Positions 1,397-36,416 of a stretch of DNA of 36,416 nt are shown here, piece after piece (within the stretch, counting starts at the first letter, position 1; every line of letters starts with the position of its first letter). This DNA is from a virus. Its lineage: Duplodnaviria > Heunggongvirae > Uroviricota > Caudoviricetes. Under the pieces are notes generated by a model, which was not told the origin of the DNA, searched no databases, and worked only from the letters and a program-made list of their open reading frames with translations. The position numbers and the translations under genes were made by a program. Location: IMG/VR virus record IMGVR_UViG_2648501873_000005; one strand, written 5' to 3'.

Positions 1397-2446
1397 ATGC
1401 TTAATACTGTAAAAATATCCAGTTGTGAGTTAATCAACGCCGACTGCCTGGAATTTATCCGGTCGTTACCCGAAAATTCTGTTGACCTGATAGTCACGGA
1501 CCCGCCGTACTTTAAAGTGAAGCCTGAGGGCTGGGATAACCAGTGGAAGGGCGACGATGATTACCTGAAGTGGCTGGACCAGTGTCTGGCGCAGTTCTGG
1601 CGGGGGCTGAAACCTGCCGGAAGTCTTTACCTGTTCTGTGGTCATCGCCTGGCATCTGATATCGAAATCATGATGCGTGAACGCTTCAGTGTGCTGAACC
1701 ATATTATCTGGGCGAAGCCGTCCGGACGCTGGAACGGATGCAACAAGGAAAGCCTGCGGGCGTATTTCCCCGCCACAGAGCGCATTCTGTTCGCGGAACA
1801 TTATCAGGGGCCGTATCGTCCGAAAGATGCCGGGTATGCGGCGAAGGGCAGTGCACTGAAACAGCATGTGATGGCCCCGCTGATTTCTTACTTTCGTGAT
1901 GCGCGCGCGGCCCTGGGGATAACGGCAAAACAGATTGCAGATGCCACAGGAAAGAAAAACATGGTGTCGCACTGGTTCAGTGCCAGTCAGTGGCAGCTAC
2001 CGAACGAAAGCGATTATCTGAAATTACAGTCGCTGTTTGCCCGGGTGGCAGAAGAGAAACATCAGCGCGGTGAACTGGAAAAGCCCCACCACCAGCTGGT
2101 GGATACGTATACGTCACTGAACCGGCAGTATGTGGAGCTGCAGAGTGAATATAAGCATCTGCGGCGGTATTTTGGTGTGACGGCGCAGGTGCCGTACACG
2201 GATGTGTGGACACATAAACCGGTGCAGTTCTATCCCGGGAAACATCCGTGCGAAAAACCGGCAGAAATGCTGCAGCAGATAATCAGCGCAAGCAGTCGTC
2301 CGGGTGACCTGGTTGCAGATTTTTTTATGGGCTCAGGTTCAACGGTAAAAGCTGCACTGGCGCTCGGGCGTCGTGCGATTGGCGTTGAACTGGAGACCGG
2401 ACGTTTTGAGCAGACAGTCAGGGAAGTTCAGGATTTAATCGTTTGA
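1397..2446 (+). CDS. DNA N6-adenine (or N4-cytosine) methyltransferase, orphan phage type
   Basis: 349-aa ORF with the catalytic motif IVTDPPYF (DPPY) near the N-terminus. No adjacent restriction endonuclease gene. Confidence 0.8.
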   Translation: MLNTVKISSCELINADCLEFIRSLPENSVDLIVTDPPYFKVKPEGWDNQWKGDDDYLKWLDQCLAQFWRGLKPAGSLYLFCGHRLASDIEIMMRERFSVLNHIIWAKPSGRWNGCNKESLRAYFPATERILFAEHYQGPYRPKDAGYAAKGSALKQHVMAPLISYFRDARAALGITAKQIADATGKKNMVSHWFSASQWQLPNESDYLKLQSLFARVAEEKHQRGELEKPHHQLVDTYTSLNRQYVELQSEYKHLRRYFGVTAQVPYTDVWTHKPVQFYPGKHPCEKPAEMLQQIISASSRPGDLVADFFMGSGSTVKAALALGRRAIGVELETGRFEQTVREVQDLIV

Positions 2447-2495
2447 AACGGATGAGATTGCAGAATTAATTACGCACCATTATTATTCTGCTTCC

Positions 2496-2571
2496 GGCCC
2501 TTTAGCTCAGTGGTGAGAGCGAGCGACTCATAATCGCCAGGTCGCTGGTTCAAATCCAGCAAGGGCCACCA
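2496..2571 (+). tRNA. ileZ: tRNA with anticodon CAT, Ile2 (lysidine) type
   Basis: Hand-folded cloverleaf: acceptor GGCCCTT/AAGGGCC, D-stem GCTC/GAGC, anticodon loop CTCATAA, T-loop GGTTCAAATCC, 3' CCA. Closely resembles E. coli tRNA-Ile2 (ileX) as recalled. Confidence 0.85.
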
Positions 2572-2578
2572 TCACATA

Positions 2579-2655
2579 CCGCCATTAGCTCATCGGGATA
2601 GAGCGCCAGCCTTCGAAGCTGGCTGCGCGGGGTTCAAGTCCCCGATGGCGGTCCA
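2579..2655 (+). tRNA. argN: tRNA-Arg, anticodon TCG
   Basis: Acceptor CCGCCAT/ATGGCGG, D-stem GCTC/GAGC, anticodon stem CCAGC/GCTGG with loop CTTCGAA, T-arm CGGGG-TTCAAGT-CCCCG, CCA end. 5' boundary uncertain by 1 nt. Confidence 0.8.
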
Positions 2656-2668
2656 TTATCTGCATCAT

Positions 2669-2712
2669 GCGTTGTTAGCTCAGCCGGACAGAGCAATTGC
2701 CTTCTAAGCAGC
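2669..2712 (+). pseudogene. Degenerate or truncated tRNA-Arg(TCT)-like 5' half
   Basis: Good acceptor 5' strand, D-arm GCTC-AGCCGGACA-GAGC and anticodon loop CTTCTAA, but a weak anticodon stem and no recognisable T-arm or acceptor 3' strand downstream. Confidence 0.45.
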
Positions 2713-2904
2713 TGTGGTTGCACTCCTGTTGTTTCTGGTGGTGATGGTGGACTTCAGCAGCCGGATAATGTCGGTGCTGTCTGATGGTGTTTTGGTGGCG
2801 GGTGTGTGGTTGTTGCTTTCCCGTTGCTGAAAAAGAAAGCATCAGGCGATTAGCAGGGTATCAGTTACCCGTTGAAATTTTTAAATACCTCACAATTCCA
2901 CAGC

Positions 2905-3108
2905 TTGATGATTGTCTGGCTGCCGGAGAATTTGTTAAAAATTACATCGCATGGTGAATCCCCCTCAGCGGCGGGGCATCTGGCAAAGTGTATGATCCAG
3001 AGAACATGCAAATTCAGTAGACAGGCTGAATTTACCGGGAGGCCCCTGGCACCATGCGACAGACAGAAATTAGGCTATACTTCAGCCCCTCTCCGGAGGG
3101 GCTTTTCT
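2905..3108 (+). repeat. Copy 1 of a diverged direct repeat of about 200 bp, ending in a terminator-like hairpin
   Basis: Blocks shared with copy 2: TTGTCTGGC..TTTGTTAAAAA..TCGCATGGTGAATCCCCCT, ACCGGGAGGC.C..GGCACCATGC, and the identical hairpin GCCCCTCTCCGGAGGGGC followed by a T-run. Confidence 0.6.
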
Positions 3109-3371
3109 GTGCAGGATGTGTCACAGTTTCCTGAATTCTGAGTACTGTCCTGTTACTCAGGGTGCTATATTTTCTGACGTGATGAAAGTCTGCCGGAAGG
3201 CGGAACGTATCGGAAATGACCCAGTAGAGAAAACGTTGACTCAGATACCGATGCTGAGTTACCGGGAAACCGGCATCACATGACCGCTATCCTTCCAGGC
3301 TCGCTCCGGCGGGCCTTTTTACTGCAGAAAACAGTTTTCCCGTAAAATGCCACGTTGCTCATAATTCAGGC

Positions 3372-3570
3372 TGGCGATTATTGTCTGGCCGGCGGGAAGT
3401 TTGTTAAAAAATTTCGCATGGTGAATCCCCCTGTGCGGAGGGGTAATCAGCGAGTAGGTATATGGGATAATCGCGGATTCAGGTGCTGGTACTGAATTCA
3501 CCGGGAGGCACCCGGCACCATGCAATGGCACATAGCGCCACTCTCCAGCCCCTCTCCGGAGGGGCTGTTT
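3372..3570 (+). repeat. Copy 2 of the same diverged direct repeat
   Basis: Same conserved blocks and the identical GCCCCTCTCCGGAGGGGC hairpin at 3548-3565. Confidence 0.6.
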
Positions 3571-3601
3571 ATATTGATTTTGTCAGATGTGAGTAAACTG
3601 C

Positions 3602-3937
3602 TTATGGACTTTGTTGTTTTAGCCCATAAGGACATATTTGCAGAGTGCAACGGTTATTAAAGCATTCATTCAATACGTTATCTGTATTTGTAGGGCATTC
3701 CTGGCTGTTTTTGATTAAATTCCAGAATGTTTTATTGAATGGTACTACGTTGTAAATGGTTACAGGTAGCACTTTGTTATTGAGCATGATGCCTGTGTGA
3801 GTCAGTGTAAATATACTTTCAGGAGGTAAGAAAGCATCCGATTGATACCAGATTATTAATTTTATTTTACTCCATATGACTGAAAAAGATATTCCGCATG
3901 ATGGCTGGATAACTGTATCAATCACAATCCACTTCAT
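3602..3937 (-). CDS. Hypothetical protein (111 aa) in an AT-rich island
   Basis: Minus-strand ORF with AAGGAAAC ribosome-binding site 6 nt upstream of the ATG. The surrounding 3600-4180 region is visibly AT-rich against a roughly 50-55% GC background. No recognisable family. Confidence 0.4.
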
Positions 3938-4197
3938 TTAGTTTCCTTGTTTATGCCTTGCTGGTGATGTTCTGAAAAGTATAAATGATATTTTTGATTG
4001 TAAACCATAGAGCAGAATTATTTTTCTGATGTTGTTTATTGTTTATTTAAATGCAGGGTGGTTTATATCTCGTCTTGTAGTTTATCCATGCATATCTGCT
4101 TGATGATGAGGTTTTTATTTAAGGTATGGTTTTGTGTTTTTTCTGTATTACATGTCAGGTATTTTAAAGAATCATTTTTCAGATGGTGGAAAGAACC

Positions 4198-6092
4198 ATG
4201 GCATTTAAACACTATGATGTTGTCAGGGCGGCGTCGCCGTCAGATCTTGCGGAAAAGCTGACACATAAACTGAAAGAGGGCTGGCAGCCGTTTGGTAGTC
4301 CGGTGGCCATAACCCCTTATACCCTGATGCAGGCGATTGCAGCAGAAGGTGATGTGGTCGTCAGTGGTGCAACTGAGCCGGAGTGGTACTACGTCATCGT
4401 ACTGGCCGGGCAATCCAATGCCATGGCTTACGGTGAAGGGCTTCCGCTTCCGGATTCTTACGATGCGCCCCACCCACGCATTAAGCAACTGGCCCGTCGC
4501 AACACAGTGACTCCCGGTGGTAAAGCATGCGCATTTAACGACATCATTCCGGCAGACCACTGCCTGCATGATGTTCAGGATATGAGCGCACTGAATCATC
4601 CGAAGGCAGACCTGAGCAAAGGGCAGTACGGCTGTGTCGGCCAGGGCTTACATATTGCCAAAAAACTGCTTCCGTATATCCCGAATAACGCGGGGATCCT
4701 GCTGGTACCATGCTGTCGTGGTGGTTCGGCATTCACCCAGGGCGCGGAGGGGACATTCAGTGCGGACACGGGGGCCAGCCAGGATTCGGCACGCTGGGGT
4801 GTGGGTAAACCGTTATATCAGGACCTGATCGCACGCACCAAAGCGGCATTACAGAAGAACCCGAAAAATGTGTTGCTGGCGGTGTGCTGGATGCAGGGCG
4901 AATTTGACATGAGCGCTGCCACCTACGCACAGCAACCGGACCTGTTCACGGCCATGCTGAAGCAGTTCCGTACTGACCTTTCCGGATTTAACGCGCAGTG
5001 CCATGGCGGCAGTGCTGCAGTTGTACCGTGGATTTGTGGCGACACGACGTATTACTGGAAAAACACATACGGCACACAGTATGACTCCGTCTACGGCGCG
5101 TACAAAAACAGGGAGAGCGACAACGTTTTCTTTGTGCCGTTCATGACCGACGGTAACGGCAACAACACGCCCACCAACTTACCGGCAGAAGACCCGGATA
5201 TTGCTGATGCAGGTTATTACGGCGCGCAATCCCGTAGTAATGGTAATTGGGTATCGTCAAATCGTCCGACACATTTCAGTTCATGGGCGCGCAGGGGCAT
5301 TATTTCGGATCGCCTGGCAACCGCTATTCTGAACGCAGTTGGTCGAACCAGCGCCTTCATCAGCGGTACCGCACCGGAGATTAAACCCTCGCCCGGCGGC
5401 GACACGCCATCGGGGCCGTCTGATGGTGACACATCCGTTCGTACAGTCTCCCTGCTGCCGACAGCCGGAGAGGCTGCTGCGCAGGGCTGGACCATCACCG
5501 GCGGCAGTGTTGCGCTGGAAGATGGTGTGTTTAAGGTTACCAAGCAGAGCAATAAAACCTGGTCCCTGATGCATCCGGTGGATGACGCAGTCTCCCTGCT
5601 GACACGGGGTGGCAGACTGAGCTGTAAGTTTCGACTGTCAGGCGCACTGACCAACAACCAGTTCGGTCTGGGAATTTATCTGTATACCGATGTAGCGTTA
5701 CCTGACGTCGTGGCGATGACCGGGACTGGTAACCCGTTCCTGATGTCGTGGCGATGACCGGGACTGGTAACCCGTTCCTGATGTCGTTCTTCACCCAGAC
5801 CACAGACGGCAAACTGAATCTGATGCATCACAAGAAAGCCGGAAACACAAAGTTGGGCGAGTTCGGGAATTACAGTAACGACTGGCAGACGCTGGAGCTG
5901 GTGTTCACCGCCGGCAGTGCCACGGTTACTCCGAAACTGAATGGAGTGGCTGGCCCGGCATTCCAGGTCATAAAAGACAGTCTGACACTGGGGCTGAATG
6001 CGCTGACGCTGACGGATATTACCAAAAATGCAGCGTATGGCGTTGAGATAGAAAGTCTGGTGCTGGAGATAAATGCACCGGCATCATCATAA
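4198..6092 (+). pseudogene. nanS-p: NanS-p-like esterase (DUF1737 N-domain plus SGNH/SASA sialate O-acetylesterase domain), frameshifted
   Basis: N-terminus MAFKHYDVVRAASPSDL and SASA-like block VIVLAGQSNAMAYGEG. The reading frame breaks at a 38-bp tandem duplication at 5707-5782, so the gene appears as two track ORFs (4183-5757 and 5748-6092). Family assignment from memory. Confidence 0.7.
5707..5782 (+). repeat. Perfect 38-bp tandem duplication (2 copies) inside the esterase gene
   Basis: GTCGTGGCGATGACCGGGACTGGTAACCCGTTCCTGAT occurs twice consecutively. 38 is not a multiple of 3, so it causes a frameshift. Confidence 0.9.
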
Positions 6093-6168
6093 AAAGTGAG
6101 CCAGTCAAATGGAAGGTATCGTTAAACTCACCGGTAGTGTCAGTGGGTCGTCTGAGATGCCTGCATGA

Positions 6169-6207
6169 GTTATCAGAGCCATCAGTACTTAACTGGTGGC
6201 TTTTTTT
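6169..6207 (+). terminator. Terminator-like hairpin upstream of the holin
   Basis: Imperfect stem GCCATCAG/CTGGTGGC followed by TTTTTTTATT. Confidence 0.35.
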
Positions 6208-6242
6208 ATTGTTGTCAGCTTCCGGATAACGGGAGACGGGGT

Positions 6243-6458
6243 ATGTACCAGATGGAAAAAATCACAACAGGTGTGTCATACACCACGTCAGCGGTGGGAA
6301 CGGGCTACTGGTTCCTGCAGTTGCTGGACAGGGTTTCCCCGTCTCAGTGGGCGGCAATAGGCGTGCTGGGGAGTCTGCTGTTTGGGCTGCTGACATATCT
6401 GACTAACCTGTATTTCAAAATCAGAGAGGACCGTCGTAAGGCTGCACGGGGAGAGTAA
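6243..6458 (+). CDS. S: Class II holin / pinholin, phage 21 S-like, with dual-start motif
   Basis: [71 protein letters not shown]. Two Met codons 3 codons apart (typical antiholin/holin dual start), two transmembrane segments, basic C-terminus. Resembles S21 as recalled. Confidence 0.85.
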
Positions 6459-6462
6459 TTCA

Positions 6463-6807
6463 ATGACTCAAAACTATGAACTGATTGTGAAAGGGATCCG
6501 CAATTTTGAGAATAAAGTTACGGTAACTTTAGCGTTACGGGACAAAAAACGCTTTGACGGTGAAATTTTTGACCTGGACATCTCGCTGGACCGTGTTGAA
6601 GGTGCCGCGCTGGAGTTTTATGAGGCAGCAGCCAGAAGGAGCATCAGACAGGTCTTCCTGGATGTTGCTGCCGGGTTATGTGAAGGGGATGAGCAGTCGC
6701 CGGAAAAGCGCCCCGTAATTTTAGAGGCGCAGGATGTGTTGATAACCTACAGAGGAAAACTACCGGGAATAATTACGGGTTCTCTGAAGAGTCCGCCGAA
6801 ATGGTAA
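6463..6807 (+). CDS. Hypothetical protein inserted between holin and endolysin, possibly YdfR/DUF1327-like
   Basis: 114-aa ORF with GGGGAGAG ribosome-binding site. Position matches ydfR in the K-12 Qin prophage; sequence identity to that family is unverified. Confidence 0.5.
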   Translation: MTQNYELIVKGIRNFENKVTVTLALRDKKRFDGEIFDLDISLDRVEGAALEFYEAAARRSIRQVFLDVAAGLCEGDEQSPEKRPVILEAQDVLITYRGKLPGIITGSLKSPPKW

Positions 6808-7045
6808 TTTTACCAGCATATTTTTCATCCAGTAATACAGCAAGCCGCCTGAAAGAGTCTTGTTGTTCCTGAGACCATTTGGGATTGCATGATTCAAACT
6901 GGATTGATGCCAGCGTTGATTGCATCTGTTCCCTTGGAATTGAGAATGCCAGATATGAGAAGGCGACGGTAAGGGTATTCACGTCTTCCCGAAGCCTGGA
7001 AATGCTGTCGAGCAACTCCTGTAGAGAAATGGTGTTATTGTCCAT
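6773..7045 (-). CDS. Hypothetical protein (90 aa), convergent with and overlapping the preceding ORF
   Basis: Minus-strand ORF with strong ribosome-binding site (GAGGATTATTT then ATG). Its 3' end overlaps the 3' end of 6463-6807 by 35 bp. A 7-bp palindrome CAGCCTG..CAGGCTG lies in its upstream region (7069-7091). Confidence 0.4.
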   Translation of the reverse strand: MDNNTISLQELLDSISRLREDVNTLTVAFSYLAFSIPREQMQSTLASIQFESCNPKWSQEQQDSFRRLAVLLDEKYAGKITISADSSENP

Positions 7046-7150
7046 AAATAATCCTCATGATTGTATTGACCTGTTAGCAGCCTGAGGCAACAGGCTGGAA
7101 CTGATAAACATATCCAGGGCTCAGAAACCGATAAATCCTGATAAATATCC

Positions 7151-7684
7151 ATGAACGCAAAAATCAGATACGGCCTGTCGGCTGCCGTTCTGGCGCTGAT
7201 TGCCGCTGGTGCGCCTGCGCCTGACATTCTCGACCAGTTTCTGGATGAAAAGGAAGGTAACCACACCACGGCATACCGTGATGGCGCGGGTATCTGGACC
7301 ATCTGCCGCGGTGCCATCCTGGTGGATGGCAAACCTGTCGTTCCGGGCATGAAGTTGTCGAAGGAAAAATGCGACCGGGTTAACGCCATTGAGCGTGATA
7401 AGGCGCTGGCATGGGTGGAGAAAAACATCAGAGTGCCATTGAGTGAACCCCAGAAAGCGGGGATCGCGTCATTCTGTCCGTACAACATTGGCCCCGGTAA
7501 GTGTTTTCCGTCGACGTTTTATAAACGAATTAATGCAGGTGATCGCAGGGGAGCGTGTGAGGCGATTCGCTGGTGGATTAAGGACGGTGGCAGGGACTGC
7601 CGTATTCGCTCAAATAACTGTTACGGTCAGGTATCCCGTCGTGACCAGGAGAGCGCGCTGGCGTGCTGGGGAATCGACAGATAA
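7151..7684 (+). CDS. R: SAR endolysin (lysozyme, R21-like)
   Basis: 177 aa. N-terminal hydrophobic Gly/Ala-rich signal-anchor-release segment LSAAVLALIAAGAPAP followed by a lysozyme-like domain. Resembles R21-type endolysins as recalled. Confidence 0.85.
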   Translation: MNAKIRYGLSAAVLALIAAGAPAPDILDQFLDEKEGNHTTAYRDGAGIWTICRGAILVDGKPVVPGMKLSKEKCDRVNAIERDKALAWVEKNIRVPLSEPQKAGIASFCPYNIGPGKCFPSTFYKRINAGDRRGACEAIRWWIKDGGRDCRIRSNNCYGQVSRRDQESALACWGIDR

Positions 7685-8110: not shown

Positions 8111-8227
8111 GTGACTGATGACATCAGCAGAGCGCTGGCTTTTGCTATTAAGTGGGTGGCTGTTGGTATTGCTGTGTCTCCGATGCTGTATGGGCTGGCA
8201 AAACTGGTCATTGCGCTGAAATCGTGA
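8111..8227 (+). CDS. Small hydrophobic peptide (about 38 aa, GTG start), paralogous to the next ORF
   Basis: VTDDISRALAFAIKWVAVGIAVSPMLYGLAKLVIALKS. Shares the core RA[LM]AFAI[KR][WI]VA[VI] with the downstream peptide. Start codon uncertain. Confidence 0.3.
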   Translation: MTDDISRALAFAIKWVAVGIAVSPMLYGLAKLVIALKS

Positions 8228-8238
8228 ACTTTAAAAAG

Positions 8239-8325
8239 ATGAGTGCTGAACTTATTCGGGCAATGGCATTTGCCATTCGTATTGTGGCCATTGCTGTTCT
8301 GGTCTGGGCAATCCGTTGGTGGTGA
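8239..8325 (+). CDS. Small hydrophobic peptide (28 aa), paralogous to the previous ORF
   Basis: [28 protein letters not shown]. Its stop codon is 1 nt before the Rz ATG, suggesting translational coupling. Confidence 0.3.
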
Positions 8326-8326
8326 T

Positions 8327-8794
8327 ATGAACCGTGTTCTGTGTGTGGTGATTATTGTCCTGCTGGTAGCCTGTGGTGTGCTTAGTCTGGGGCTGAATCA
8401 TTACCGCGATAACGCCATCACCTACAAAGCGCAGCGCGATAAAAAAGTCAGTGAGCTGAAACTGGCGAACGCGACAATTACTGATATGCAGATACGCCAG
8501 CGTGATGTCGCTGAACTTGATGCCAGATACTCGAGGGAATTAGCCGATGCGAGAGCTGAAAATGAAACTCTGCGTGCTGATGTTGCCGCTGGTCGTAAGC
8601 GCCTGCGGATCAACGCCACCTGCTCCGGTACCGTGCGTGAAGCCACCGGCACCTCCGGCGTGGATAATGCAACCGGCCCCCGACTGGCAGACACCGCTGA
8701 ACGGGATTATTTCATCCTCAGAGAACGGTTGATGACAATGCAGAAGCAGCTGGAAGGGGCACAGGACTATATCCGCACTCAGTGCCTGAACTAA
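8327..8794 (+). CDS. Rz: i-spanin Rz
   Basis: N-terminal transmembrane segment followed by [16 protein letters not shown] and C-terminal [16 protein letters not shown], closely matching lambda Rz as recalled. Confidence 0.85.
8547..8732 (+). CDS. Rz1: o-spanin Rz1 (outer-membrane lipoprotein), embedded in the +1 frame of Rz
   Basis: [22 protein letters not shown].. with a lipobox and proline-rich body ending [23 protein letters not shown], matching lambda Rz1 as recalled. Confidence 0.8.
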
Positions 8795-9132
8795 GTTTTG
8801 CTGATGCGCCGTATCGTCGCTGTATTCCCTCATTAACAGAGACCGCAGCCCGACAGGGAGACTCCTCTGCGCGAGTGTGCGGGGATAATCAAAAACGATA
8901 CACACCGGGGTTTACCGCGTTAACGGAGCGCGGCGTTGTCCCCTCATAGTCGCCAGTCCGGTGCGATGGTGGAAGAAACAGGACGATGTGTTACCTCGCA
9001 AGCCCTGTTATGTCATGTGTCTGATTTGTGATTTAAGTCGGATAATTGTCGTTGCCATTAAGCAGAGGATTGATGACCGACAGGGCGGCATTGTTAGAAT
9101 AAGACTTATTCTTATCTGTGCGGGGAATGAAA

Positions 9133-30903: not shown

Positions 30904-33276
30904 ATGACAGTAAAAATTTCTGGCGTGCTTAAAGATGGCACAGGAAAACCAGTACAGAACTGCACCATTGTGCTGAAGGCCAGACGAACCAGCAGCACGG
31001 TGGTGGTGAACACGGTGGCCTCTGAAAATCCGGATGAAGCCGGACGTTACAGCATGGATGTTGAGCATGGTCAGTACAGCGTCACCCTGCTGGTTGAAGG
31101 TTTTCCGCCTTCACATGCCGGGACCATTACCGTCTATGAAGGTTCCAGACCAGGCACGCTGAATGATTTTCTCGGTGCCATGACGGAAGAGGATGTCATG
31201 CCGGAGGCATTGCGTCGTTTTGAGGTAATGGTGGAAGAAGCGGCACGCAACGCTGAAGCCGCCTCTCAGAGCGCAGCGGCGGCAAAGAAATCCGAAACTG
31301 CAGCGGCATCATCGAAGAACGCGGCGAAAAACTCAGAAACGAATGCAGCTAACAGCGCACAGGCGGCAGCGGCCTCGCAGACTGCATCGGCAAATTCCGC
31401 GACAGCAGCTAAAAAATCAGAAACCAACGCGAAAAATAGCGAGACAGCAGCAAAGACGAGCGAAACCAACGCAAAGTCCAGCCAGACGGCAGCGAAGGCC
31501 AGCGAAACGAATGCCAAAGCCAGTGAAACTGCGGCGAAAAACAGCCAGACTGCAGCAGCTGAGAGCGAGAGCGCAGCAGCCGGTTCTGCGACTTCAGCAG
31601 CTGGAGCAGCAACTGCTGCGGCTAACAGCCAGAAAGCAGCGAAGACGAGTGAAACTAACGCAAAGTCCAGCCAGACGGCAGCGAAGACCAGCGAAACGAA
31701 TGCCAAAGCCAGCGAAACTGCGGCGAAAAACAGCCAGGTTGCAGCAGCCCAAAGCGAGAGCGCGGCAGCTGGTTCTGCAAGCGCGGCGGCTGCTTCTGCC
31801 ACTGCATCAGCCAACAGTCAAAAAGCGGCAAAAACCAGTGAAACCAATGCAAAGACAAGCGAGACTGCAGCGGCGAACTCGGCGAAAGCATCGGCAGCAA
31901 GCCAGACAGCAGCTAAAGCAAGTGAAGACGCAGCCAGAGAGTATGCAAGTCAGGCAGCAGAGCCGTATAAATATGTCTTACAGCCACTGCCTGATGTGTG
32001 GATACCGTTTAACGATTCACTGGATATGATTACGGGCTTTTCGCCGTCATATAAAAAAATTGTTATTGGTGACGATGAAATAACGATGCCTGGCGACAAG
32101 ATTGTTAAGTTTAAACGTGCATCGAAAGCAACCTATATTAACAAATCTGGTGTGCTGACAGAGGCTGCCATTGACGAGCCACGATTTGAACGTGATGGCC
32201 TGCTTATTGAGGGGCAAAGAACAAACTACATGCTCAATTCGGAAAGCCCTGCCAGTTGGGGGCGATCGTCAAATATGGATGTGCCCGAAACAGGGACGGA
32301 TAATTTTGGTTTTACCTATGGAAAGTTTGTCTGCAACGATTCTCTGATTGGGCAAACCTCAGCCATTAATATGGCATCAATTGCTGCAACAAAGTCAGTT
32401 GATGTCTCAGGCGATAATAAACACGTGACAACCTCATGTCGTTTTAAAACAGAACTGCAGGTAAGGTTGCGTATCCGGTTTGATAAATATGACGGTAGCG
32501 CAACAACTTTTCTTGGTGATGCGTATATTGATACACAAACGCTTGAAATTAATATGACAGGCGGTGCTGCCTCAAGAATTACAGCGAGAGTCAGAAAGGA
32601 CGAAGCTACCGGATGGATTTTTGCAGAGGCAACAATTCAGGCAATTGATGGGGAGTTTAAAATAGGCTCTCAGATACAGTATTCTCCTAAGCAGAGCGGG
32701 GCAACCGTATCTGGTGACTATATTTATCTGGCCACCCCACAAGTAGAAGATGGGCCTTGTGTATCATCTTTTATTATATCAGGAGCGACGGCGGCGACCC
32801 GCGCAAGCGATATAGTTACAGTTCCAATTAAGAATAATCTTTATAATCTTCCTTTTACGGTTCTTTGTGAGGTACATAAGAACTGGTATAAAACGCCAAA
32901 TGCAGCGCCACGTGTTTTTGATACCGGCGGTCATCAAACCGGAGCGGCTATTATTCTTGGCTTCGGTCGTTCAACATATTACGACGGATTTCCTTATTGC
33001 GATATTGGAGGAGCTAACAGACGGGTAAACGAAAACGCATCGCTTGAAAAAATGGTTATGGGGATGCGTGTAAAGTCAGAGCAGTCTACGTGCTCAGTAA
33101 GTAACGGGCATATATCCAGCGAAACAAAAACCACATGGTCCTGTATTCGGAACACCGCAATTATCCGTATTGGAGGCCAGACTACAGCCGGGTTACGTCA
33201 TTTATTTGGTCATGTCAGGAATTTCAGAATATGGCACAAGGCATTGACTGATGCTCAGGTGGGGGAGTCAATCTAA
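30904..33276 (+). CDS. stf: Side tail fibre protein (Stf-like)
   Basis: 790 aa; conserved N-terminus MTVKISGVLKDGTGKPVQNCTI.., then an Ala/Ser/Thr-rich repeat region (SETNAK motifs) and a divergent C-terminal domain with lower GC. Confidence 0.8.
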   Translation: MTVKISGVLKDGTGKPVQNCTIVLKARRTSSTVVVNTVASENPDEAGRYSMDVEHGQYSVTLLVEGFPPSHAGTITVYEGSRPGTLNDFLGAMTEEDVMPEALRRFEVMVEEAARNAEAASQSAAAAKKSETAAASSKNAAKNSETNAANSAQAAAASQTASANSATAAKKSETNAKNSETAAKTSETNAKSSQTAAKASETNAKASETAAKNSQTAAAESESAAAGSATSAAGAATAAANSQKAAKTSETNAKSSQTAAKTSETNAKASETAAKNSQVAAAQSESAAAGSASAAAASATASANSQKAAKTSETNAKTSETAAANSAKASAASQTAAKASEDAAREYASQAAEPYKYVLQPLPDVWIPFNDSLDMITGFSPSYKKIVIGDDEITMPGDKIVKFKRASKATYINKSGVLTEAAIDEPRFERDGLLIEGQRTNYMLNSESPASWGRSSNMDVPETGTDNFGFTYGKFVCNDSLIGQTSAINMASIAATKSVDVSGDNKHVTTSCRFKTELQVRLRIRFDKYDGSATTFLGDAYIDTQTLEINMTGGAASRITARVRKDEATGWIFAEATIQAIDGEFKIGSQIQYSPKQSGATVSGDYIYLATPQVEDGPCVSSFIISGATAATRASDIVTVPIKNNLYNLPFTVLCEVHKNWYKTPNAAPRVFDTGGHQTGAAIILGFGRSTYYDGFPYCDIGGANRRVNENASLEKMVMGMRVKSEQSTCSVSNGHISSETKTTWSCIRNTAIIRIGGQTTAGLRHLFGHVRNFRIWHKALTDAQVGESI
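31260..31930 (+). repeat. Internal coding repeats in stf, including a 195-bp (65-aa) duplication
   Basis: Two near-identical 65-aa units (SETNAKSSQTAAK.SETNAKASETAAKNSQ..AAAGSA..ANSQKAAKT) beginning near 31447 and 31642, plus shorter SETNAK-type sub-repeats. Confidence 0.6.
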
Positions 33277-33566: not shown

Positions 33567-34607
33567 ATGGCTACATCGACAGTAATTCCTGATGACATCA
33601 AAACGCTAAAATCCGACGTTAGCAAATTAAAAAACGATCAAGGAAGCTACGCAACAAAATTATATGTAGACAGCAAAGATGAAATCGTTGGTGACTGGTC
33701 TGCTTCATGGTATCAGCAGGTATTGCCAACTAGCGGAGCTATATTTGGGAGAAAACTCCGCTCAACTCACAGGACGGCAGGTGTTGAGGATGCGTATTGC
33801 GAACTATACCTCAAAAAATGGATAGACAGTCCAGGTAACGCAATGGCGCGCCTTAACCTGAACGATAACGGGACAAACATTTGCTGGGACTTTACCAACC
33901 TTTATGGCGGTACGATGATTTTTCCCGGTGACAGCGGATACCTCAAAATGGGTAACTGCCTTATGTCATACAGCAAGCGTGGAAGTAACGCGCTTATTAA
34001 ATTTGATTACACCGACACATTACAGATCAAATATGCCAATCATGGGTCAACCATGACATTAAACACACAGGGAACCGCTTATGCTGGTGTTACTGCTCAA
34101 TTGTGGGGCAACTCCAGCCGTCCTGTTGTTTATGAAGTCGGTGTTGATGGTGGCGCTTATATGTTCTATGCGCAGAAAAATACCGATAACACCTATATGT
34201 TAAGCGTTAATGGTGCATGTCATGCCACCGCATTTAACCAGCATTCCGACCGGGATCTGAAAGACAACATTCAGGTGATCGATAATGCAACCGACCGCAT
34301 CCGTAAAATGAACGGCTATACATACACGCTTAAAGAAAACGGTATGCCCTATGCTGGTGTCATTGCACAGGAAGCTCTGGAAGCAATCCCAGAAGTTGTA
34401 GGTTCCGTAATGAAATATCAGGACGGTGCGAGCGGATCGGAAGGTGAAGAAGGTGAACGTTATTACACAGTAGATTATTCTGGTGTTACTGGCTTGCTTG
34501 TTCAGGTAGCCAGAGAGTCAGACGACAGAATAACAGCACTGGAAGAAGAAAACGCAGAATTAAGACAAAGATTATCTGCAATTGATGCGGCGCTTGCGTC
34601 TAAATAA
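33567..34607 (+). CDS. Second tail fibre / tailspike-like protein with C-terminal peptidase S74 intramolecular chaperone domain
   Basis: 346 aa. C-terminal HSDRDLKDNIQVI..MNGYTYTLKENGMPYAGVIAQEALEAIPEVV..YYTVDYSGVTGLL..ALEEENAELRQRL matches the self-cleaving chaperone domain of endosialidases and L-shaped tail fibres. Confidence 0.65.
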   Translation: MATSTVIPDDIKTLKSDVSKLKNDQGSYATKLYVDSKDEIVGDWSASWYQQVLPTSGAIFGRKLRSTHRTAGVEDAYCELYLKKWIDSPGNAMARLNLNDNGTNICWDFTNLYGGTMIFPGDSGYLKMGNCLMSYSKRGSNALIKFDYTDTLQIKYANHGSTMTLNTQGTAYAGVTAQLWGNSSRPVVYEVGVDGGAYMFYAQKNTDNTYMLSVNGACHATAFNQHSDRDLKDNIQVIDNATDRIRKMNGYTYTLKENGMPYAGVIAQEALEAIPEVVGSVMKYQDGASGSEGEEGERYYTVDYSGVTGLLVQVARESDDRITALEEENAELRQRLSAIDAALASK

Positions 34608-34643: not shown

Positions 34644-34943
34644 ATGAAAATGGATATAACACCTTTCCTTCATGCGCTTTGTGCTGTGGCTGCGCAGCTA
34701 CTGATTGGTCTTTTTACCGGGAACTGGGCTTACGGGGCGATAGCCGGTTGTACGTTCTTCATTGCGCGTGAACACACCCAGGCAGAATATCGCTGGATCG
34801 AAATGTTCGGGCATGGCAAGCGAATGAATATGCCGTGGTGGGGCGGTTTTGATCCGCGCGCGTGGGATGTGGCAAGCCTGATGGATTTTGCTGTGCCGGT
34901 GGTGGCGTGTCTGCTGGTCTGGCTGTTGGTTAATCGTGGGTGA
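34644..34943 (+). CDS. Hypothetical membrane protein (about 100 aa)
   Basis: Two or three hydrophobic segments. Preceded by hairpin GGGGC..GCCCC plus T-run. Its stop codon abuts the tfa remnant. Start could be 34650. Confidence 0.4.
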   Translation: MKMDITPFLHALCAVAAQLLIGLFTGNWAYGAIAGCTFFIAREHTQAEYRWIEMFGHGKRMNMPWWGGFDPRAWDVASLMDFAVPVVACLLVWLLVNRG

Positions 34944-34953
34944 AAAAAGGTGA

Positions 34954-35082
34954 GCTGTATATGCAACGGAGGAAGAAACCTCGTTGCGGGAAGCCTGGAA
35001 GAAGTATCGGGTGTTGCTGAACCGTGTTGATACATCAACTGCACCTGATATTGAGTGGCCTACGAACCCTGTCAGGGAGTAA
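34954..35082 (+). pseudogene. 3' remnant of a tail fibre assembly (tfa) gene, last ~42 codons
   Basis: Translates to ..[39 protein letters not shown], nearly identical to the C-terminus of the complete Tfa-like ORF at 35862-36131. No start codon or N-terminal region. Confidence 0.55.
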
Positions 35083-35131
35083 TCATTGGGATTATGCCGC
35101 AGCACGTCTTAAGCAAGAACGTGCTGCGGTT
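34962..35131 (+). repeat. Direct repeat copy 1 (about 170 bp, tfa 3' end plus downstream hairpin)
   Basis: Matches 36012-36181 at high identity; includes the 10-bp inverted repeat CCGCAGCACG..CGTGCTGCGG. Confidence 0.7.
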
Positions 35132-35136
35132 GGATG

Positions 35137-35805
35137 CTATTTTTTCCCTGAAGCGGAAAACATTACTACAGTACCTTGAACCTTGGTTTTAACATTCTCG
35201 AAATGCTCTGAGAGTATATGTGTTAAGCCTTCTTCGGAATCTTTTGTGTTTGAAAAGATGCCTTTCTGATTGTAAATGCGCATCAGTTTTTGACCGAAGC
35301 TATTGTGCACAACTCCATCGCCAAGAATTGTGGCTCCGTATAGAGTTCCATCGTCAGTTAAGGCCTGCGCCGCATTGCGTATTACACAGCTTTTTGTAGA
35401 TATATTTCCAGGCAGGCAGTGAAGAAGGTAAAACATGGAAATGGAATCAAATTGACCATGTAACGCCGCGGGATAAGGTTCAAAAACATCATGGCTAATT
35501 TTATGTTTAATTTTTGATTCCCCAGCCCTTGTAGATGCCGCGTTCAGGCTAGCTTCGTTCAAATCCATTAAAGATATCAGACTACTCTCAGGTACGTGAG
35601 TAAGGTAAAACCCAGTTCCAACACCAATATCCAGATGGTTGTTACCTACATGTTCCAGAAAGTGTGGAAGAAGGTGTTCCTTTGTAGGACATCCCCATGC
35701 AAGCCGATTTGATACTCCCAAAACCCACCAGTCATAAAGCTTTAGGGTAAGTGGTGTGTAAATTTTAGCCCCATCATCTGTGTTTTTTTTCATTGATTTC
35801 ACCAT
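35137..35805 (-). CDS. Class I SAM-dependent methyltransferase in a low-GC island
   Basis: Minus-strand ORF of about 220 aa with Rossmann motif I HLDIGVGTGFYL and downstream acidic and hydrophobic motifs. Visibly AT-rich relative to flanks. Likely true start is the second ATG (plus 35793). Confidence 0.6.
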   Translation of the reverse strand: MVKSMKKNTDDGAKIYTPLTLKLYDWWVLGVSNRLAWGCPTKEHLLPHFLEHVGNNHLDIGVGTGFYLTHVPESSLISLMDLNEASLNAASTRAGESKIKHKISHDVFEPYPAALHGQFDSISMFYLLHCLPGNISTKSCVIRNAAQALTDDGTLYGATILGDGVVHNSFGQKLMRIYNQKGIFSNTKDSEEGLTHILSEHFENVKTKVQGTVVMFSASGKK

Positions 35806-35861
35806 GTTATAGTTTTATTTGTGAATTGAATCAATTATGGCGATGAATTACAAGGGGTTAA

Positions 35862-36131
35862 ATGCTGCCGCAGCATAGCGATATTGAAATAGCCTGGTAT
35901 GCTTCGATACAGCAGGAGCCGAATGGCTGGAAGACCGTCACCACACAGTTCTACATCCAGGAATTCAGTGAGTATATTGCGCCACTGCAGGATGCTGTAG
36001 ATCTGGAAATCGCAACGGAGGAAGAAAGATCGTTGCTGGAGGCATGGAATAAATATCGGGTATTGTTGAATCGTGTTGATACATCAACTGCACCTGATAT
36101 TGAGTGGCCTGCAAATCCTGTCAGGGAGTAA
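35862..36131 (+). CDS. Tail fibre assembly protein (Tfa) C-terminal-domain protein
   Basis: 89 aa ending ..[37 protein letters not shown] ribosome-binding site. Confidence 0.55.
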
Positions 36132-36181
36132 TCATTGGGATTATGCCGCAGATACGTCGTATGCAGGAACGTGCTGCGGTT
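36012..36181 (+). repeat. Direct repeat copy 2
   Basis: Matches 34962-35131. Confidence 0.7.
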
Positions 36182-36245
36182 AGTTTGTGAGCTTTCGATA
36201 GTGGTTGTTATTTTTGCCCTTATTTGTTCCGGAGGCCATGGTTCA

Positions 36246-36416
36246 ATGGTCCGTCTGCCCCCTGTGGTGATGTCAGCAAAATCAGCCACTGCGCGAACCA
36301 CAATAGCCCGGGAAGATGCTGAAGATCACCAGGTAAAGCTGTCAGCGCAGAAACTGGAAGAACTGCTCGCATCAATGGTTAAGAATGAGGTTGATCGCAA
36401 TGATGGGATTTATTGA
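36246..36416 (+). CDS. Small hypothetical ORF at the window edge
   Basis: 56-aa ORF with GGAGG 10 nt upstream, ending at the last base of the window. Confidence 0.2.
   Translation: MVRLPPVVMSAKSATARTTIAREDAEDHQVKLSAQKLEELLASMVKNEVDRNDGIY

Follow-up and report, generated by a model that had tools for sequence, protein, structure and literature searches.

Why does a methyltransferase gene lie on the minus strand between two broken copies of the same tail fiber assembly (tfa) gene, and how could it have come to be there? The question is raised by the right end of the IMG/VR virus record IMGVR_UViG_2648501873_000005, a 36,416-nucleotide (nt) stretch of Caudoviricetes DNA that was analyzed as a whole and is referred to here as the window. 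The gene matches ybcY, a pseudogene in Escherichia coli K-12, and the explanation that we consider probable, with moderate confidence, is that ybcY is a moron in a tail fiber cargo slot, that tfa scars serve as its homology arms, and that its product is a small-molecule methyltransferase.

An intact ybcY between two tfa remnants

The segment is composed of the following features.

34963-35131, plus strand: direct repeat copy 1, a tfa 3' end followed by a hairpin
34963-35082, plus strand: tfa remnant 1, the final 39 codons and stop of a tail fiber assembly gene
35096-35130, both strands: hairpin common to the tfa 3' end and the methyltransferase 3' end
35137-35793, minus strand: intact ybcY, predicted class I S-adenosylmethionine (SAM)-dependent methyltransferase of 218 amino acids (aa), assigned through Pfam, phrog_2132 and K-12 identity
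35806-35834, minus strand: sigma-70 promoter-like site TTGATT-17-TATAAC directly 5' of ybcY, with the hexamers reported for K-12
35862-36131, plus strand: tfa remnant 2, tfaX-like, 89 aa (Caudo_TAP, phrog_2341)
36012-36181, plus strand: direct repeat copy 2, which includes a degraded hairpin at about 36145-36180

From 34963 to 36060 the window is approximately 99% identical to the block formed by the tfaD 3' end, ybcY and tfaX in the cryptic DLP12 prophage of K-12, in the same order and on the same strands, and this identity includes the hairpin, the promoter hexamers and the first part of tfaX. On this match, the methyltransferase gene is identified as the intact form of the K-12 pseudogene ybcY (b0562), in which a 2-nt deletion in a T-run destroys the start region and three amino acid changes are present. 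The window differs from DLP12 in that its upstream tfa consists of 39 codons after a membrane protein open reading frame (ORF) and the 3' end of its tfaX is tfaD-like and includes a hairpin, lengthening the repeat to 170 nt; in addition, its prophage resides in ompW, unlike DLP12, which occupies its own site. The arrangement is already known, being annotated in K-12 and in thousands of other genomes, and is not a new system; the initial annotation of this locus, made without database searches, had missed the annotated tfaD-ybcY-tfaX order of DLP12. Literature on ybcY, b0562 and ECs1656 yielded incidental mentions only, and no paper was found that joins tail fiber assembly, moron and methyltransferase.

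The guanine-plus-cytosine (GC) content of the methyltransferase ORF is 41.2% (35.6% at third codon positions), compared to 53.5% for the whole window; the distal tail fiber genes beside it also reach only 42-44%. An AT-rich segment carrying a minus-strand class I SAM-dependent methyltransferase, as initially annotated, was thus confirmed through its 41% GC, its Pfam matches and an HLDIGVGTG motif. With phrog_2132, the match extends across 218 of 218 positions (E 4e-157). Although the minus-strand frame is open to 35805 (35137-35805, 222 aa), translation probably begins at the ATG at 35793 and yields 218 aa, as 29 of 29 aligned homologues, the phrog_2132 profile and one Prokaryotic Genome Annotation Pipeline (PGAP) annotation from another strain all begin at codon 5 of the longer ORF. 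Further support comes from the predicted -10 box, which abuts the long ORF, and a very short leader is implied.

Both tfa pieces read as non-functional remnants. The first is listed in the PGAP annotation of the identical locus in E. coli EcPF7 as "tail fiber assembly protein, incomplete, missing N-terminus", and the K-12 tfaD 3' end matches it at 97-99% identity. In the tfaX-like ORF, 26 unrelated residues precede the C-terminal 63 residues of a Tfa protein; the ORF covers Pfam Caudo_TAP positions 75-130/131, matches phrog_2341 and, by BLASTP, is 83% identical to TfaD residues 125-187. The tfaX ORF is disrupted in K-12 by a nonsense codon and in Sakai Sp8 by ISEc8.

Comparison of the two repeat copies gave one block at 91% identity (34963-35102 with 36012-36151) and a second at 89% (35104-35131 with 36154-36181), the two being separated by a 1-nt indel. 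In a global alignment of the copies, 169 against 170 nt, 152 positions are identical, far above chance for 36 kb. The repeat as initially described, a tfa 3' end plus an inverted repeat, is therefore real, with the 39 codons, stop and hairpin all found and 152/170 positions identical, except that it begins at 34963 and not at 34962.

The hairpin at 35096-35130 folds at -28.5 kcal/mol on the plus strand (z-score -4.05) and at -25.4 kcal/mol on the minus strand (z-score -4.5), and looks like a bidirectional terminator, judging from these predicted folds. Its counterpart in copy 2 is degraded, with a z-score of about -2. In Sakai Sp8, the hairpin is found at the ybcY 3' end with no tfa coding sequence attached. 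An Rfam scan of 34.4-36.4 kb returned no match. In K-12-like genomes, PGAP labels a short ORF over the hairpin and the ybcY 3' end (about 8153-8807 of locus L002) "nucleocapsid protein", and in other genomes the same 138-nt ORF is a "hypothetical protein"; this ORF, antisense to ybcY, looks like an annotation artefact.

Cargo variation and probable recombination at the tfa 3' end

In order to determine how the locus is distributed, 5426 complete E. coli genomes were surveyed, with ybcY counted at a nucleotide identity of at least 98%. The gene was present in 3836 genomes (71%), in up to four copies per genome and 4882 copies overall. The left junction, running from the tfa 3' end through the hairpin into the methyltransferase, was found in 3065 genomes, the right junction between methyltransferase and tfaX in 3425, and a configuration without the methyltransferase in 236. 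At several attachment sites (ompW, DLP12 and potB), the ybcY block lies at the right end of the prophage; it likewise occurs in Sakai Sp8, 5' of ISEc8, a hydrolase gene and ompT. It is also carried by 15 phage records, including the inducible lambda-like phages ev243 and 2G7b.

The same left junction leads to ybcY, to sitABCD, to a larger catalase block ending in ybcY, or to nothing, providing direct support for the variable cargo slot proposed in the initial annotation. Phages ev203 and 4A7 have the same 97-aa membrane ORF as the window and retain the first ~60 nt of the tfa remnant; minus-strand sitABCD comes next, so that the breakpoint falls inside the remnant. In Sp8, the 132-nt direct repeats made by a full tfa and tfaX are spaced 3.8 kb from each other, with a catalase gene, three hypothetical genes and ybcY between them. 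Strains whose DLP12 site holds a full prophage show the empty form: only one tfa remnant separates the 97-aa ORF from appY, and the methyltransferase gene is absent. Two findings had been named in advance as speaking against cargo exchange, namely a conserved core gene showing no variability, or a gene unexpressed or disrupted in relatives; ybcY is indeed found in 71% of genomes and is broken in K-12, but the cargo varies.

The single remnant of the empty site is a hybrid, with the left junction of copy 1 in the window and a 3' part like that of K-12 tfaX, which matches the product expected from recombination between the two direct repeats. This supports the earlier suggestion that cargo is exchanged by recombination at the tfa 3' end. 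Between the window and Sp8 or ev243, only 2 of the 657 nt of ybcY differ, whereas identity in the adjoining tfa pieces is 86-92%. Such a near-invariant core, set between homology arms that have diverged, is consistent with the block having spread recently by recombination. Matches to the tfa 3' end number a median of 3 per genome and up to 11.

Other genes occupy the vicinity of the slot. The catalase and three hypothetical genes of Sp8 (2337-4550 of locus L011) are further minus-strand cargo, and in both ev243 (4831-7455 of locus L008) and Sp8, a gene for a 494-aa alpha/beta hydrolase and ompT are found between tfaX and the integrase. The "chromosomal" appY and ompT of K-12 sit in the same place after tfaX in DLP12, which suggests that they are also phage cargo.

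Predicted transcription of ybcY

The sequence TTGATT-17-TATAAC occurs once in the window, with 0 occurrences expected by chance, and is listed as the constitutive RpoD promoter of ybcY in a genomic SELEX (systematic evolution of ligands by exponential enrichment) study of K-12 (PMC3946193). In the same study, an H-NS site is marked in the ybcY/tfaX spacer of K-12 (PMC3946193). Scanning for consensus promoters gave no more matches than in shuffled sequence, which is why the promoter is called from the published K-12 hexamers. Transcription would start at a sigma-70-type promoter belonging to the gene itself, run antisense to the late tail operon, and end at the strong hairpin. Taken together, the promoter-like site, the terminator-like hairpin, the antisense orientation and the distinct composition make expression in the lysogen possible, probably damped by H-NS.

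Enzyme family and candidate active site

The 218-aa protein matches the Pfam families Methyltransf_12, 23, 25 and 11, with Methyltransf_12 scoring 37.5 bits against a cutoff of 30, and carries HLDIGVGTG (motif I, GxGxG) at residues 53-61. The AlphaFold2 model has a predicted local distance difference test (pLDDT) score of 90. A seven-stranded beta-sheet fold together with a Pfam methyltransferase domain above its gathering score places YbcY, by sequence and model, among the class I SAM-dependent methyltransferases. YbcY is cytoplasmic, and no hydrophobic segment was found in its sequence. The profile search and structure prediction that had been recommended thus returned the class I domain and fold, with generic Pfam matches only and no subfamily. 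Assignment to a subfamily through NCBIfam was rejected, as matches to CpaM, RquA and PmtA fell far below cutoffs, and a direct phmmer search of the PDB gave only weak matches to JHAMT and UbiG.

An exhaustive profile search yielded ~415 clusters at E < 1e-30 from many genera, including a few fungal ones, and the cluster of the full-length 222-aa protein holds 6589 member sequences. Nearly all family members are single-domain proteins of 215-235 aa with uninformative source names; among longer relatives no informative fused domain was found, one fungal protein having an RCC1 fusion. Homologues sharing 55-65% identity are encoded by stand-alone genes on the chromosomes of Enterobacter hormaechei, where a DUF4156 gene and a hydrolase gene flank the fixed site, and of Salmonella, where the gene is near sseJ. 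Those in Yersinia, Aeromonas and Klebsiella, and an E. coli paralogue, occur in unrelated contexts, some adjoining insertion sequence (IS) elements.

Residues discussed below follow the numbering of the 222-aa ORF. The SAM motifs are invariant across 30 homologues, and in a profile of 83 diverse members only five residues are invariant: Tyr24, Asp81 (the acidic end of beta-strand 2), His129, Gly157 and Asp189. Cys130, Cys39 and His57 are near-invariant. Searching the PDB with this profile gave CysG and BelI as the best matches (E 8e-7 to 6e-6), followed by NodS, XrdM, PmtA, JHAMT and UbiG; these best matches, CysG and BelI included, methylate carboxyl, N or O positions of small molecules. Likewise, the best 50-60 structural matches are mostly small-molecule and lipid methyltransferases, with no DNA methyltransferase among them.

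CysG and BelI (PDB 9G0K, 9FCE) are SAM- and metal-dependent carboxyl O-methyltransferases of beta-lactone biosynthesis, only 16-18% identical to YbcY, and in CysG a catalytic divalent metal is bound by His122, His123 and Asp191 (PMC11408123). His129-Cys130 of YbcY align with His122-His123 of CysG, so that the second ligand would be Cys in place of His. The His129/Cys130/Asp189 set may therefore be a His-Cys-Asp variant of the CysG/BelI metal site, and YbcY may be an O-methyltransferase that modifies an acid metabolite with the aid of a metal; we treat this as a lead and not as family membership. Unlike CysG and BelI, neither ybcY nor its homologues are surrounded by a biosynthetic cluster of the beta-lactone or isopropylmalate type, and the gene stands alone in all contexts examined.

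A proposed moron in the tail fiber cargo slot

The proposed explanation is that ybcY is a self-contained passenger (moron) 3' of the tail fiber genes of a lambdoid prophage in ompW, and that the substrate of YbcY is most likely a small molecule, possibly a carboxylate, methylated with the help of a metal or base site around His129, Cys130 and Asp189. The two 170-bp repeats would be recombination scars instead of functional sites: copy 1 what remained after another fiber module (a 346-aa fiber and the 97-aa membrane protein) took the place of the 5' part of a tfa gene, and copy 2 a 5'-truncated tfa (tfaX). Because E. coli genomes hold several prophages with near-identical tfa 3' ends, such scars could act as portable homology arms, and ordinary homologous recombination at them would move the ~1-kb ybcY block between prophages or delete it.

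Two features expected of a moron are found here: the composition is distinct (41% compared to 53.5% GC), and empty, sitABCD and expanded variants occur among related phages. A promoter-like site (a sequence match, with SELEX data from K-12) and a strong hairpin are candidates for a promoter and a terminator of its own. Other lambdoid morons 3' of tail fiber genes, including sitABCD in ev203 and 4A7, ompT with the hydrolase in ev243 and Sp8, and lom, share the slot and architecture of ybcY, with cargo opposite to the late operon, variable composition, and presence or absence among related phages. They differ in that their cargo is a transporter, an outer-membrane protein or an effector, whereas ybcY encodes a single enzyme. 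Also comparable are the exchangeable effector loci of O157 prophages, reportedly described by Tobe et al. in 2006.

Several observations weigh against the proposal. The hybrid remnant alone does not settle whether the empty and filled states arose by deletion or by insertion. K-12 lives without ybcY, so any benefit to the host would be conditional. The predicted -10 box abuts the ORF, giving a near-leaderless messenger RNA, and the promoter is a sequence match only. The alignment with CysG spans residues 54-156 only, leaving Asp189 and its proposed counterpart, CysG Asp191, outside the aligned part. Finally, the gene neighborhoods of eight homologues contain no conserved partner pointing to a pathway. 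As there is neither such a partner nor a significant PADLOC match, a general cellular or xenobiotic substrate is favored.

Alternative explanations

Four other explanations were weighed, each of which is judged less likely than the moron. In the first, ybcY is a functionless, H-NS-silenced hitch-hiker linked to recombining tail fiber DNA, and the locus is a graveyard of recombination scars. The K-12 pseudogene, the decay of both flanking tfa pieces, the DUF4376 pseudogene close to the tfa remnants, and the H-NS site reported in the ybcY/tfaX spacer (PMC3946193) are all consistent with this. However, the 6589 sequences of the full-length cluster, the invariance of catalytic and SAM-binding residues over many genera in ~415 clusters, and the difference of only 2/657 nt between alleles of different prophages whose flanks have diverged all argue against it, and we consider a mere hitch-hiker unlikely.

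It is also quite improbable that YbcY tunes host translation in the lysogen by methylating RNA or protein, for example the transfer RNA (tRNA) wobble base or the ribosome. No RNA-binding extension is present, and the best profile matches (CysG/BelI, NodS, XrdM, PmtA, JHAMT and UbiG) act on small molecules. YbcY also has an invariant aromatic N-terminal lid (YDWWVL) and an insertion between beta-strands 5 and 6. Both are typical of small-molecule methyltransferases.

A role in defence or counter-defence, which the initial annotation had raised, would have YbcY methylate phage or host nucleic acid, or an immune signal, to block or evade an anti-phage system. Prophage accessory slots of this kind often hold defence genes, and ybcY stands alone in one, has a promoter-like site to itself, and spreads from prophage to prophage nearly unchanged in sequence. 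The evidence nevertheless runs the other way: the sole PADLOC match is insignificant (mad2, E 0.009, 12.9 bits), no partner gene was found, and the (D/N/S)PP(Y/F/W) and PCQ motifs were not found, a single ENV at residue 199 having no PCQ partner. Moreover, 218 aa leave no room for a target-recognition domain, and the prophage has another DNA methyltransferase at 1397-2446. The absence of DNA methyltransferases from the best 50-60 structural matches, mostly small-molecule enzymes, and the occurrence of the 55-65% identity homologues as single genes at fixed non-phage sites point in the same direction. YbcY thus lacks the catalytic motifs and target-recognition domain of a DNA methyltransferase of the N6A, N4C or C5 type, whether orphan or from a restriction-modification system, and the defence role as a whole is very unlikely.

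A bolder extension of the moron proposal is that YbcY methylates and neutralizes a specific small molecule (an antimicrobial, a toxic acid metabolite or a nucleotide-type immune signal) through the His-Cys-Asp site, which would make it a phage-delivered resistance or immunity-modulating trait in ~70% of E. coli, spread via tfa scars; we regard this as speculative and give it little credence.

Weakest of all is site-specific movement of the cassette through its hairpin, in the manner of integron attC, which is extremely unlikely even though the hairpin lies 3' of both repeats in the window and accompanies the methyltransferase 3' end in Sp8 without tfa coding sequence, since there is no integrase or recombinase gene in 30-36.4 kb, the breakpoints vary (34963 in the window, ~35020 in ev203, ~35091 in Sp8), the empty site is a simple homology hybrid, and the copy 2 hairpin is degraded. 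An invertible segment was likewise dismissed. The Mu G, P1 C and e14 P segments (Gin/Cin/Pin) also have duplicated tfa and tail fiber pieces at the end of the tail operon, but in the window the repeats are direct instead of inverted, both tfa copies are remnants, and no recombinase ORF or annotation was found between the tail fiber genes and attR. The initial statement that this is no shufflon was therefore correct.

Prophage context and neighboring genes

Across the 1.8-kb region, E. coli EcPF7 and other strains match the window at 100% identity, and on this basis the window is assigned to an E. coli lambdoid prophage inserted in ompW. The EcPF7 locus is the right end of a lambdoid prophage, with the order J, lom, a 790-aa side tail fiber, a 93-aa ORF, the 346-aa second fiber, the 97-aa membrane ORF, tfa remnant, methyltransferase, tfa remnant and DUF4376 pseudogene, after which comes a truncated ompW adjoining trpA. 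The neighbors of the ybcY segment in the window are as follows.

33567-34607, plus strand: second tail fiber, 346 aa, with a C-terminal Peptidase_S74 intramolecular chaperone domain (Pfam)
34650-34943, plus strand: predicted membrane protein, 97 aa, probable start (phrog_1443, E 5.8e-59)
36228-36416, plus strand: DUF4376 tail fiber pseudogene fragment (PGAP annotation of the EcPF7 locus; phrog_1141 tail fiber, phrog_7703)

The DUF4376 fragment runs past the end of the window, and the truncated ompW (attR side) lies ~500 nt further on. The left part of the window contains a Q antiterminator, a DNA methyltransferase, two tRNAs, and lysis and head genes.

The 346-aa fiber is preceded by the 93-aa ORF (phrog_1361, function not known). 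Because this fiber carries its own Peptidase_S74 chaperone, a separate Tfa would probably be unneeded, and a self-chaperoning fiber module probably explains the decay of the downstream tfa to 39 codons.

The longest open frame of the 97-aa membrane ORF runs from 34635, and hydrophobic segments are predicted at about residues 3-24 and 71-97. The function of phrog_1443 is not known, and no match was found in Pfam or NCBIfam. The ORF stops at 34943, 19 nt short of the first tfa remnant, and does not end exactly where the remnant begins, as had been annotated. It was found in 72 phage records, and in the 4/4 loci inspected (ev243, 2G7b, ev203 and 4A7) it lies at the tail fiber end. In every inspected locus it is the final plus-strand gene ahead of minus-strand cargo, whether ybcY, sitABCD or none. 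Its junction with the tfa remnant is base-identical across different phages, and in Aeromonas and Halomonas phages its distant relatives adjoin tail fiber assembly genes.

Two further observations concern the rest of the window. Within the 790-aa side tail fiber ORF (30904-33276), the region 31260-31930 is a long block of 21-nt-periodic repeats that encodes a low-complexity stretch rich in Ala, Ser, Glu, Thr and Lys, with SETNAKxSxTAAK-like units; the block includes a tandem duplication of 189 nt whose copies are 80% identical. Two tandem copies of the small RNA STnc100 (Rfam; 138 and 132 bits) are found on the plus strand at 2919-3112 and 3388-3576, just 3' of the phage tRNAs at 2496-2568 and 2579-2652 (Ile and Arg in the annotation of an identical genome) and the DNA methyltransferase ORF at 1397-2446. 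This is the position 3' of Q at which Shiga toxin (Stx) phages carry toxin genes.

Implications

As an ordinary and already annotated moron, the locus leaves the understanding of phage biology unchanged. It is a clean example of accessory-gene trading by lambdoid prophages in which the leftovers of structural genes would serve as homology arms, with filled, empty and alternative-cargo alleles all present in public genomes. About 71% of the complete E. coli genomes encode YbcY; since K-12 is naturally null for the gene, the function should be easy to test, and the His-Cys-Asp hint offers a concrete starting hypothesis for what that function may be.

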